From Chlamydiota bacterium (GTDB lineage: Bacteria > Chlamydiota > Chlamydiia > Chlamydiales > JAAZZY01), in the NCBI GenBank assembly GCA_022601345.1, contig JAJACU010000019.1:112474-176473 (forward strand): 64,000 nt of DNA, written 5' to 3'. Every line of letters begins with the position of its first letter. Positions within the stretch are counted from its first letter, which is position 1. The position numbers were made by a program, and so were the translations under genes. The notes under the pieces were generated by a model. That model searched no databases. It was given only the letters and a program-made list of their open reading frames with translations, and had not been told where the DNA came from. Shown here one piece after another: positions 56,798 through 63,771 of the stretch.

Positions 56798-56873
56798 AGG
56801 AGGTCACCTATGCGTGCAATTACACCCCATGTGTAGCTGTCGCATGAAAAAAATGTGGATAAGATATGCGTAG
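56798..56873 (+). promoter_or_regulatory. Leader with AGGAGG plus two tiny uORFs, the second overlapping the giant gene's start codon
   Basis: AGGAGG at 56798-56803. uORF1 at 56810-56836 encodes MRAITPHV*. uORF2 at 56844-56873 encodes MKKMWIRYA*. The main ATG at 56866 has no obvious Shine-Dalgarno sequence. Confidence 0.3.
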
Positions 56874-62800: not shown

Positions 62801-63771
62801 GAAATTCTGTTACAGCTAATAATCTTAAGTTTAATACAGCGCTTCCAGTTGAGTTTCATAGTTCAGTAAAAGTTGTTGAACTTGAAACTAAAGCCCCGCA
62901 TGTTCTTTTTGCAAATAATGTAACAGTAGAGGGGGCTATTACAGCCAACGATATCACAACAGCAGGCAGTGAGAATAAAGTCAAATTCTTAGGTGGCGGT
63001 GAGATTAAGGGAAATAGTGTCTTCAAAAATGGAGCAGGAATTTTCTTAGGTGGAAGTGAGCAGTCTGTAATTACTTTCCACGGTCCACTAGATACTACAG
63101 CTTCTCTTTTAGAGGCTCGTGGGACTATCCAAACTATTAATAAAACTATTGATCTTGGAAACATGAGTGTTGTAGGAAACACAACAATTCGCTCAACTTA
63201 TAGAGACTCAAGCGGTAAAAATATTTACTTCTTAGGAGTCGTTGAAGGTCCTAAACAACTTAGAGCAAACGCTGGAAATGCTAAGATTTGCTTTGAAAAT
63301 CATGTAGGGTCACAAACAGCTCTAGAATCTCTTCAGGCAACAGCATCAAGTATTGAACTAGATGGTGATGTAAGGTCTCAAGACGGAAATGTAGTTTTTG
63401 CTGGGGATGTAGTTTTCACCAATACTTCTAATTTAACTGCAGATGGGCAAGCCAGCATTATTTTTCAGGGAACAGTAAATGTAGATGGTAATGCAAAAGG
63501 TCCAGTAGATTTGATCTTAGATGCAACAGGAAAGATTGAATTCCAAAAAGATGTTGGAGACAGTAAAGGGTTTAATGAAGTTATTGTGACAAGAGCTGGT
63601 GAGCTTGTTTGTCGCTCACCTCTTAAATCTAACATTATCACTCAATCTCAAGCAGTCCCTCTCCAAAAGGTTGAGGCAAAAACTGCTGAGAGTGAAAAGC
63701 AATCAAAAGAAGTAGAAGCGACTCAAAATATTTCAAAAAACGAGAATGCTCAAAATGTTCACGAATCTTAA
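56866..63771 (+). CDS. Giant secreted repeat protein with an N-terminal two-partner-secretion (TPS / filamentous haemagglutinin-type) domain: TpsA-like exoprotein
   Basis: 2301 aa with signal peptide MRSKNFIIPLMCLLFAFCLEMPLASSA. TPS pattern at aa 30-360: FDVEEGKEIKVIQPSEDSILVIRV, ANGKVYLFNPKGIF (NPNGI-like), LDASGTFRGGQVNLGGDLEGKG, GHGGEVVVWSEE..FQGEIFARGG..GAGGRVETSS and QWMLDPSNIVIT. A modular beta-helix-like repeat region and a Lys/Glu-rich tail follow. There is no C-terminal barrel. Confidence 0.85.
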   Translation: MRSKNFIIPLMCLLFAFCLEMPLASSAMSFQTVKGSVSLVEQKEVTKIHASDNSVVEYSSFDVEEGKEIKVIQPSEDSILVIRVKSNQPTRIRSKLSANGKVYLFNPKGIFLDKEAQIEKGTFYFVGSELLTENVGSDLNILPTTGDVVNHGNINSMGEVHLIGRHVVNSGTINAIEKVKIAQTNAKDQLSILHTGTIQSKNVFIEARNGTCEIYGKIDSKNTVENQYGGNICILGQQVRLIGAYLDASGTFRGGQVNLGGDLEGKGPLFKATRTSVDDATVIDASAIEYGHGGEVVVWSEELTSFQGEIFARGGRKYGAGGRVETSSSNHLGIFSGRVNVGAACGEQGQWMLDPSNIVITDAEEASDNLSLVSEFPAKSGSQVTISVQALNNFAGGKLQIAATNRITIDANIENISSTLDLTFRAGSQIRLKNEEIKVPNGKVSFIIENEESGQVVCSKDFKGITAHELVVVAPRGQKNGFQVETNSLVLNPTNANRSNPSFVFETDVIAKNNSNHQLYLRRSKGACGSIVFEGSLEGFNFVNSETNLKVVGESQIGHLVTKGATKVELLGGGHISELAELENLSGITIGNRPESNLKVNGALNTTSSVTKLCGTIETQAEFEANDVKLIGNTVINTNNNPFVVHLNITQENVLADLAVHTGSAHTTVEGSVYANDFSIDSTLTPALCGEVCVFNFTSNTPEVRLGHDLVVSGQMNCLNLTTSGENKKVAFAKGGIFKGKTSFNHTGTTTLGDHEAASFSFEDMLDTHKSITYSHGLIYVQGPVEINELALLGDTSIQCDQYSCNIEGSVTQQECNANFDVNTKTNPITFGKYIQVEGLSLNTSSLVKIEVPVHVTSFTTSSPSVEFTDHLFVEGVLSSNNISTTGQDSQVSICGGAQINGSALFENEASITLGQSPDSEFVIGNRLSCSNCSIKVQGSFDVTGQVDLYDVELFDHTNFKTHGHNFNVEKAVSQNTGVADFSVSTDAGHINFGSQIYVNDLNLVTSAPIYVGSELDAINVSTTSPLLTFAGNTMIQGQLESLSIATLGSSKKFQLNHGGKVSGDAKIANGGTFIVGQAVEDTLELLGPLDRSNGETVAQGTIRSHAGTVDFEKLTLSGTLSVLSVSNDGEGQEITFHSEVDGAHQLNVNAASSVVNIERPFGASDALTGLTVYANLLNTKADITLERGAGEFYTNIKLDNNVQVKDLGREGLFFYGKIDGNYDLDLISNQMVVVKKDIGSTVPLNAVNVSAKRIDVWASVAANSGAINFNGDVEICENVKLVNCGSTGICFNGKVDGDFFVELRVKDKGGKISFNEDIGQHQPLRHVVLSTSSPVTFNKKVHVDNFETTAPNTIFYNDVLVAGDFNVHNVLFDGARQNVNLMGGGQILGNATFNNKGDLTLGADDQVEFNVGGILSRVDGPTYARGIINTNGALADFSALHAVGNLKLTSFNPAGTSFNFNSTLDGAHNITVDSKNGSVNFYDYVGNHHPLASLDVNAPIISMQRQITVKDGDIALNGDLNLVNHSSIRNEGGEKIFISGNVNGEWNLSIYANANDAQIVVAGAIGGEHPINYFNVETSNKVDFNKNVTVYNLNTTSPLITFNNDVEIKQHVQANNIVMNASEGQFTILGGGYLTGDLELCNTSGTTILGDSRFCSLTTEGKCSIYTANTFAQGLIQSSSSSMEFNKLHLNGPLKVASTAQKSKGESITFNHEVVGAQAFEIDAGVGQVAFSKSIGDDVAMQSLNVKGSTIALGGNVNLAEGSAVFQGDVNLTNDVIIRDQGKGCITFLGQVNGAYDLEIFNQHEAGQITFTNAVGSQQALNTLQMTTQNAVEFPRNIEVATLNTTAPALTFADEATISKDINAHHLVTKGKFRAVRLLGNGNFSGMTTFSNSGSLVLGGNDSSEFVFSGPLSVQNCVLISQGQIRANGSIALTELSLKGSTSFDTQDNEFKVTGIVEQINDGSNLNIEAGSGQVTFGNSVTANNLKFNTALPVEFHSSVKVVELETKAPHVLFANNVTVEGAITANDITTAGSENKVKFLGGGEIKGNSVFKNGAGIFLGGSEQSVITFHGPLDTTASLLEARGTIQTINKTIDLGNMSVVGNTTIRSTYRDSSGKNIYFLGVVEGPKQLRANAGNAKICFENHVGSQTALESLQATASSIELDGDVRSQDGNVVFAGDVVFTNTSNLTADGQASIIFQGTVNVDGNAKGPVDLILDATGKIEFQKDVGDSKGFNEVIVTRAGELVCRSPLKSNIITQSQAVPLQKVEAKTAESEKQSKEVEATQNISKNENAQNVHES
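58486..63613 (+). repeat. Intragenic protein-level repeat array (about 162-aa modules expanded by extra 78-85-aa sub-repeats)
   Basis: The anchor motif T-[ST]-[SA]-P has its Pro at aa 702, 864, 1026, 1352, 1599, 1849 and 2011 (spacings 162, 162, 326, 247, 250, 162). The sub-repeat motif F-x-[GSH]-x-V-[DNV]-G occurs at aa 1137, 1215, 1292, 1461, 1539, 1710, 1789, 2122 and 2200. Counted by hand. The copies are diverged at DNA level. Confidence 0.7.

Follow-up and report, generated by a model that had tools for sequence, protein, structure and literature searches.

A giant exoprotein of the TpsA class in uncultured chlamydiae, encoded at a locus without a linked transporter gene

The TpsA gene and its product

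We analysed a 64,000-nucleotide stretch of contig JAJACU010000019.1 from a Chlamydiota bacterium (assembly GCA_022601345.1), hereafter the window, which carries near its end a gene for a giant exoprotein of the TpsA class, the exported partner in two-partner secretion (TPS). The gene (56866..63771, forward strand) is a single unbroken open reading frame (ORF) of 2,301 residues plus the stop codon, as seen in the ORF listing and the translation, and its assignment is supported by orthologues and by PF05860 and TIGR01901 matches above their cut-offs. A divergent ORF with one transmembrane (TM) segment precedes it, a small conserved ORF overlaps its end, and no gene for a TpsB, the Omp85-type transporter of such systems, is found beside it. 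Considering the results below, we conclude that the product is a real secreted beta-helix protein of the TpsA class, 2,301 residues long, which has been kept in a small group of uncultured chlamydiae. It extends the known two-partner system to a new lineage, and no new secretion mechanism is established by it.

An earlier note, made from the sequence of the window, had described the product as a filamentous-haemagglutinin-type TpsA exoprotein and had quoted five blocks of its secretion domain. All five were found in the translated ORF, namely SSFDVEEGKEIKVIQPSEDSILVIRV (aa 59-84), ANGKVYLFNPKGIF (aa 98-111), ASGTFRGGQVNLGGDLEGKG (aa 248-267), GHGGEVVVWSEELTSFQGEIFARGG..GAGGRVETSS (aa 291-328) and QWMLDPSNIVIT (aa 350-361), and the class assignment was confirmed by two family models, by profile matches to PDB sequences and by fold matches. 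The Pfam search that the note had proposed gave PF05860 (TPS) at 45.2 bits over aa 45-243, above the gathering cut-off of 33.5, and the NCBIfam model TIGR01901 matched aa 57-123 with 41.1 against a cut-off of 29.1. Solved secretion domains were recovered both by the single sequence (EtpA at 2.4e-21, HMW1 at 2e-19, and also HxuA) and by a profile built from 18 N-termini (EtpA at 1.8e-108, HMW1 at 2.4e-81, HxuA at 1.5e-43). The segment GGEVVVWS...GAGGRVETSS aligns residue by residue with GNGGTAVLWS...GNGGRVETSS of EtpA.

Profile, model and Foldseek results together delimit an extended TPS secretion domain of the EtpA/HMW1/HxuA type at aa ~30-442 (56953..58191, forward strand), with the Pfam core at aa 45-243. 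It is preceded by a Sec-type signal peptide (aa 1-27; 56866..56946, forward strand), recognised by inspection of the sequence only: MRSK, a 15-residue hydrophobic core and ASSA before the cleavage point at M, with no lipobox and with conservation in the orthologues. AlphaFold rendered the signal region as a low-confidence helix at aa 7-19 and placed the first beta structure at aa 30. The model of aa 1-470 reached a predicted local distance difference test score (pLDDT) of 85.3 and a predicted template modelling score (pTM) of 0.80, and the 20 best PDB fold matches found with Foldseek were all TpsA secretion domains, led by EtpA (3.7e-15, TMq 0.69), HMW1 (1.1e-12) and HxuA (~5e-9) and followed by FhaB and HpmA. 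A right-handed beta-helix had been anticipated in the earlier note, and this agreement of the modelled TPS domain with solved TpsA secretion domains bears that out.

The motif LxANGxVYxxNxxG is invariant in the orthologues. In the alignment, LSANGKVYLFNPKGIF of this TpsA pairs with LKANGQVFLVNPNGVL of EtpA and LDSNGQVFLINPNGI of HMW1, and N99, G100, V102, N106 and G109 are invariant across the 18 sequences. Conservation along the protein peaks at aa 1-450 and aa 2100-2250, the first of these regions being the best conserved (0.58-0.77 identity versus ~0.35-0.65 over most of the shaft). Conservation of the TPS domain together with the invariant ANG...N..G motif is the pattern expected from continued use by a transporter.

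Beyond the secretion domain, the repeat hidden Markov model (HMM) and the structural model define a beta-solenoid shaft at aa ~546-2246 (58501..63603, forward strand), made of about eight full and four partial super-repeats of ~162 aa. Each super-repeat consists of two halves of ~81 aa, self-comparison giving offsets that are multiples of ~81-82 aa, and the iterated repeat HMM found the 12 copies over aa 546-2246, the lowest E-value being 2e-60. An AlphaFold model of aa 1790-2301 was all-beta (pLDDT 88.4, pTM 0.81); it had no significant PDB neighbour, and among its fold matches there was no membrane barrel. Its weak top matches were beta-helix passengers (Hbp, EspC, Hap, HMW1, HxuA and Ag43).

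BLAST coverage had suggested that the shaft repeat is specific to this clade, an idea overturned by an exhaustive HMMER search that located it in 418 representative proteins, with E-values under 1e-30 for 33 of them. Repeat-bearing proteins reach 7,815 aa, with as many as 40 stretches matched. The same extended TPS domain was also present in 64 of the 147 repeat-bearing proteins that we examined, which indicates that the whole architecture is a recurrent type of TpsA. A Pfam scan assigned no family to the repeat, even in the other proteins that carry it.

The chain ends in a disordered, poorly conserved tail rich in Lys and Glu (aa ~2261-2301; 63646..63768, forward strand), delimited from the model and from orthologue identity: over the last 41 residues pLDDT is below 50, and identity to the orthologues falls to 0.35. 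The statement of the earlier note that the protein has such a tail in place of an autotransporter barrel, and is not of the Pmp type, was borne out by the Pfam scan (no PF03797), by the C-terminal model and by counts of Pmp motifs. Pmp proteins, which are type Va autotransporters, are likewise large, beta-helical, cysteine-containing surface proteins thought to be adhesins. TpsA of the window, in contrast, has no C-terminal barrel and carries its export signal at the N-terminus, as a TPS domain, instead of a C-terminal translocator. We rejected a relationship to Pmp proteins, since GGA[ILV] does not occur and FxxN occurs 10 times, about chance by our own estimate. A barrel hidden behind a frameshift was also considered and rejected: nine orthologues stop at the same point, beyond which come the small ORF and a NUDIX gene in convergent orientation, and the C-terminus was modelled as a solenoid with a disordered tail. 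Since the orthologues end alike and the model has this form, TpsA does not run on into a barrel, and the frameshifted continuation that the note had raised against its own proposal was not seen.

TpsA contains 27 Cys (1.17%), among them those at aa 233, 345, 458, 689, 693, 718, 805, 930, 2142 and 2249. Its seven closest orthologues have 23-32 (1.0-1.4%), and 11 of the 27 positions hold Cys in at least seven of nine sequences, while the deepest orthologue, P0009, has 0.33% Cys and four non-chlamydial TpsAs have 0.07-0.31%. TpsA proteins are usually cysteine-poor because they cross the periplasm unfolded, whereas cysteine is abundant in proteins of the chlamydial outer-membrane complex. We infer that the enrichment may be an adaptation to the disulfide-cross-linked chlamydial envelope. 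NxS/T sequons number 39, where we estimate ~33 by chance.

The best match in both sequence and fold is EtpA of enterotoxigenic Escherichia coli (PDB 8cpk, 8vba, 8vbb; profile positions 18-494), which like the protein described here has an extended secretion domain with a GGxVxxWS...GGxVETSS block followed by a repetitive beta-helix. The shaft repeats of the two are, however, unrelated in sequence, the protein of the window has a roughly tenfold higher cysteine content, and its host is a chlamydia. HMW1 of non-typeable Haemophilus influenzae (PDB 2odl) shares the TPS subtype and is also a large beta-helical adhesin. FhaB of Bordetella (PDB 1rwr) and HxuA (PDB 4i84, 4rm6) have the TPS fold and the two-partner logic in common with it; FhaB belongs to another TPS subtype, and its Foldseek match is only 2.6e-3.

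Orthologues and neighbouring features

We found eight full-length orthologues of 2,276-2,442 aa with 35-67% identity to TpsA. The gene occurs in metagenome-assembled genomes (MAGs) of GTDB titled 'Chlamydiales bacterium' and 'Chlamydiia bacterium' and in two MAGs titled 'uncultured bacterium'; a scan of JGI metagenomes returned no orthologue. The GC content of the orthologous loci is 35-39%, and their common gene order is valS, a variable single-TM ORF, TpsA, the small ORF, a NUDIX gene, a Pkn-like kinase gene and an aminopeptidase N gene, with the NUDIX gene convergent with the TpsA-small ORF pair. Because the window stops 229 nucleotides past the TpsA stop codon, what lies downstream was judged from these loci. 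Several genomes of the clade have RpoB proteins that are 90% identical or more, while TpsA has diverged to 61-67%, as is expected of a surface protein that evolves fast.

The locus of the most divergent orthologue (L003, with P0009, from a MAG titled Chlamydiales bacterium) is flanked by genes for IS605-OrfB, a DDE transposase and a UPF0137 (pGP6-D-like) protein (L003 1-3000 and 18107-18310), and its local gene order is rearranged relative to the other lineages. We base the chlamydial origin of TpsA on the relatives in the GTDB MAGs with chlamydial titles. Gene content (a V-type ATPase operon, a Pkn-like kinase gene and the UPF0137 gene of L003) also looks chlamydial to us.

The 136-aa divergent single-TM ORF that had been reported upstream of TpsA was found at 56116..56526 (reverse strand), and is neither a barrel nor a TpsB. 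At orthologous loci the protein in this place is 443-493 aa long (L002 8250-9674, L004 7596-9077, L005 8380-9711), versus 136 aa in the window, and the window ORF had no BLAST match to these longer versions at E<=0.01. It evolves very fast, identity being 24-39% between genomes in which RpoB is at least 90% identical. We considered it as a cryptic TpsB and discarded it, given its one TM helix, its lack of a Pfam family and a non-significant E of 4.6 with our TpsB HMM.

Between this ORF and TpsA lies a 47-nucleotide block, TTTTTATTTACAAAGAAAT..GATAACAATAAAGAATTTAGGAGG (56757..56803, forward strand), located 63-109 nucleotides before the TpsA start codon. It ends in AGGAGG and is near-invariant in five orthologous upstream regions, the remainder of which is poorly conserved. 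A simple sigma-70 scan did not call it; it is a candidate promoter or leader. After the block, behind a perfect AGGAGG, there is an eight-codon mini-ORF, MRAITPHV (56810-56836). Most of the five loci keep the AGGAGG, but neither the ATG nor the mini-ORF length is conserved.

The small conserved ORF (MFTNLKIEADKWPW...; 63755..64000, forward strand) begins within the last 17 nucleotides of the TpsA gene and has 82 visible residues, its stop codon lying just past the end of the window. As the earlier note had stated of the downstream ORF, it has no signal peptide; it also has no TM segment. Across the clade it is 80-87 aa long and abuts or overlaps the TpsA stop in eight lineages at 50-74% identity (copies at L002 16911-17165, L004 16810-17055, L005 16887-17132, L007 16896-17141 and L033 8265-8507). 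Only the P0009 lineage, which also has the sole cysteine-poor orthologue, is missing it. Among 5.8 billion proteins it forms only eight clusters and is confined to this clade; it matched no Pfam family, and its best PDB E-value was 0.24.

TpsB transporters at the locus and in other chlamydiae

The linkage of TpsA and TpsB genes is usual and not a strict requirement of the family. Pfam scans of those window ORFs that are large enough for a TpsB revealed no ShlB, POTRA, Omp85 or autotransporter family. We also inspected the precomputed annotation of the orthologous loci L002-L005, L007-L010 and L033 for a linked TpsB, and ran an HMM built from 120 chlamydia-type TpsBs on six-frame translations of 368 kb that included the window, L001-L010 and the control loci. 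The controls were all recovered (L011 at 3.9e-44, L013-L025 at 1e-207 to 1e-243), and in the window and L001-L010 nothing scored better than E=1.6. The earlier note had reported that no TpsB was in view, which is true of the window and of the orthologous loci alike. The orphan status of TpsA is positional, that is, local to its locus, and is not demonstrated for the genome.

By contrast with the locus described here, etpA shares the etpBAC operon with the genes for its TpsB and for a glycosyltransferase, and neither of these partners is found within 10 kb of TpsA: no glycosyltransferase family was recorded among the neighbours in that range when an HMW1C/EtpC-type partner was looked for. The gene for HMW1 is similarly accompanied by those for its TpsB, HMW1B, and for a glycosyltransferase, HMW1C, and HMW1 itself carries a long pro-piece and is anchored by a C-terminal disulfide loop; neither partner, nor a pro-piece or anchor of this kind, was found with the present TpsA.

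On the other hand, TpsB transporters are common in other chlamydiae. The nearest non-orthologous homologue of TpsA, P0011, sits in a TpsB-FecR-TpsA operon (L011). With a GC content of 47.6% this locus is probably not chlamydial, and we therefore took TpsB seeds from L013. That locus contains P0048, the sole other match with the composition of an AT-rich genome, and has the order mutL-pepP-TpsB-TpsB-TpsA-TpsA at 40% GC. Queried with its two TpsBs, the POTRA_2+ShlB family gave 672 matches, the best 120 of which were all below 1e-120 and all AT-rich in composition. NCBI labels among the TpsB matches listed included Simkaniaceae, Simkania negevensis, Simkania sp., Chlamydiota and Chlamydiae, some of the proteins being named ShlB, FhaC or HecB. 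About one third of the best 120 chlamydia-type TpsBs contain at least 1% Cys, and those of L013 contain 1.7-2.0%.

Adjacent TpsA-TpsB pairs occur in L016-L025, and in L026-L032 the order is dnaN-TpsA-TpsB-smpB, near leuS-waaA; the dnaN/smpB and leuS-waaA adjacencies are presumably those of Chlamydia trachomatis. TPS operons in these low-GC loci lie at L013 6053-19301 (two tandem TpsBs and two TpsAs), L026 1164-11674 (a 2,934-aa TpsA plus TpsB) and L016 685-4943. Like the window, L013, L016-L025 and L026-L032 have a low GC content (40-42%), and their TPS domains are 28-31% identical to that of TpsA over aa ~12-442. Unlike the window, they have tpsB adjacent, and their TpsA shafts are without the 162-aa repeat. 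All of these loci are probably chlamydial. The proposal of the earlier note, an orphan TpsA whose occurrence in a chlamydial lineage would be new biology, does not stand against a TpsB family labelled Chlamydiota and adjacent TpsA-TpsB pairs in likely chlamydial loci, and the premise that two-partner secretion is missing from chlamydiae is wrong. Among the papers that could be searched, none dealt with chlamydial TPS, TpsB or haemagglutinin, nor with loci of the L013, L016 or L026 type.

Export route, function and alternatives

Our preferred interpretation, which we consider somewhat probable, is that the protein is a TpsA of the EtpA/HMW1 subclass, exported by Sec and by a TpsB encoded elsewhere to become a surface-bound or released adhesin fibre. 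Following Sec export, the signal peptide would be cleaved at about aa 27, and the POTRA domains of an Omp85-type TpsB, whose gene presumably lies elsewhere in this genome, would recognise the TPS domain at the N-terminus. Once threaded through the barrel of this transporter, the chain would fold extracellularly as a long right-handed beta-solenoid of ~162-aa super-repeats with a flexible Lys/Glu tail at its end. The resulting fibre, presumably surface-exposed and either attached or released, would most likely serve in attachment to host cells, and its cysteines may form disulfide cross-links joining it to the chlamydial outer-membrane complex. Genes for TpsA proteins that have no neighbouring transporter gene and rely on a TpsB from another locus are known from Neisseria meningitidis, among others. 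Of the three export options put forward in the earlier note (a distant TpsB, BamA or another route), the distant TpsB is by far the most likely.

Several observations weigh against this interpretation. We found no TpsB, not even a remnant, in the 64-kb window or within ~10 kb of the gene in seven orthologous lineages, and the TpsBs that we traced (P0206, P0224 and P0257 included) all come from samples without this clade. Two TPS motifs deviate from the family pattern, the first being degenerate, with LVIRV where relatives have LNRV, and the second reading NPKGI and not NPNGI. The 25 Cys of the mature protein are atypical for the class. Moreover, the adhesin function is proposed by analogy with EtpA and HMW1, the sole basis for it.

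The missing partner leads to the alternative of a true orphan, in which the genome is without a TpsB and TpsA passes the outer membrane by way of BamA, of a horizontally acquired TamA-TamB or of some other route. The stable separation of the gene from any TpsB in all seven lineages inspected and the lack of a TpsB tied to samples of the clade would agree with this, as would published work on chlamydial Omp85 proteins, which covers BamA and, in some species, TamA-TamB and describes no chlamydial TpsB. We nevertheless regard a true orphan as improbable, given that TpsB proteins are abundant in other Chlamydiota, that their absence is only local to the loci inspected and that TPS motifs as strongly conserved as these point to a dedicated receptor. 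We know of no TpsA that is exported without a TpsB. The wider form of this idea, that the whole clade is without any TpsB and that BamA/TamA or an unknown route exports TpsA, possibly aided by the small ORF, appears to us slighter still in probability; if true, it would provide the first TpsB-independent TpsA.

A TpsB-dependent protein might also have another role, as a cytolysin similar to ShlA/HpmA or in the capture of host proteins or nutrients in the manner of HxuA. HxuA is indeed among the significant matches in sequence and fold, the secretion domains of HpmA and FhaB match weakly, and one chlamydial TpsB was given the name 'HuxB' by its submitter. Yet the adhesins EtpA and HMW1 match far better than HxuA or HpmA, and a monotonous shaft of 1,700 aa without a distinct C-terminal functional domain is typical of fibre adhesins, so that we consider a non-adhesin role unlikely, if more plausible than export without a TpsB.

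As for a contact-dependent-inhibition or polymorphic toxin of the CdiA type, with the small ORF as its immunity protein, the conserved position of that ORF over the stop codon does resemble the cdiA-cdiI layout. TpsA, however, contains no VENN, VDNN, LYVN or ELYN motif; the last 150 aa before the tail are shaft repeat at 0.70-0.74 identity and not polymorphic; the tail itself is disordered low-complexity sequence; the small ORF is conserved at 50-74% and not variable; and no toxin or immunity family of Pfam was matched. The toxin reading is largely refuted and, in our estimate, has only a very slim chance of being correct. Equally far-fetched in our view is the idea that TpsA is left over from a lost TPS system and is decaying or not exported, for which the lack of a linked transporter could be adduced. 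Nine orthologues, at 35-67% identity, have the 6.9-kb ORF unbroken and with conserved length, synteny and motifs, and it stays open amid quick divergence in genomes whose RpoB proteins are at least 90% identical. That it is intact despite such divergence indicates a gene kept open, as expected for a surface protein under selection.

Studies of the chlamydial cell surface have mainly dealt with MOMP, OmcB and the Pmp autotransporters. Taken together, TpsA and the TpsB family indicate that TPS systems occur in environmental chlamydiae, in some cases as canonical operons, and that in at least one clade a giant cysteine-rich TpsA has stably remained apart from any transporter gene at its locus. 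Assuming that the protein is an adhesin exported by a TpsB encoded elsewhere, such proteins would offer candidates for the adhesins of lineages in which no host-attachment factor is known. They also raise the question of how a cysteine-rich passenger passes through a TpsB pore into a disulfide-cross-linked envelope.

Three further observations concern other parts of the window. A 491-aa protein (47855-49330) has a eukaryote-type PI3/PI4-kinase domain (PF00454), matches no NCBIfam family and is conserved in the clade (L002 1093-2583, L004 1-1442, L005 1-1489); judging from its domain content, it could be a host-directed effector. For RpoC (rpoC, 29828-33988), the representative of the 90%-identity cluster is a partial protein on a 3.7-kb contig labelled 'Gammaproteobacteria bacterium', which is probably a mis-binned chlamydial contig. 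Finally, a protein that fuses an SPW repeat to a vitamin K epoxide reductase (VKOR) domain is encoded in the window with a DUF1207 protein nearby (14553-15899 and 7366-8580), and the SPW-VKOR protein may bear on disulfide-bond formation in the envelope.

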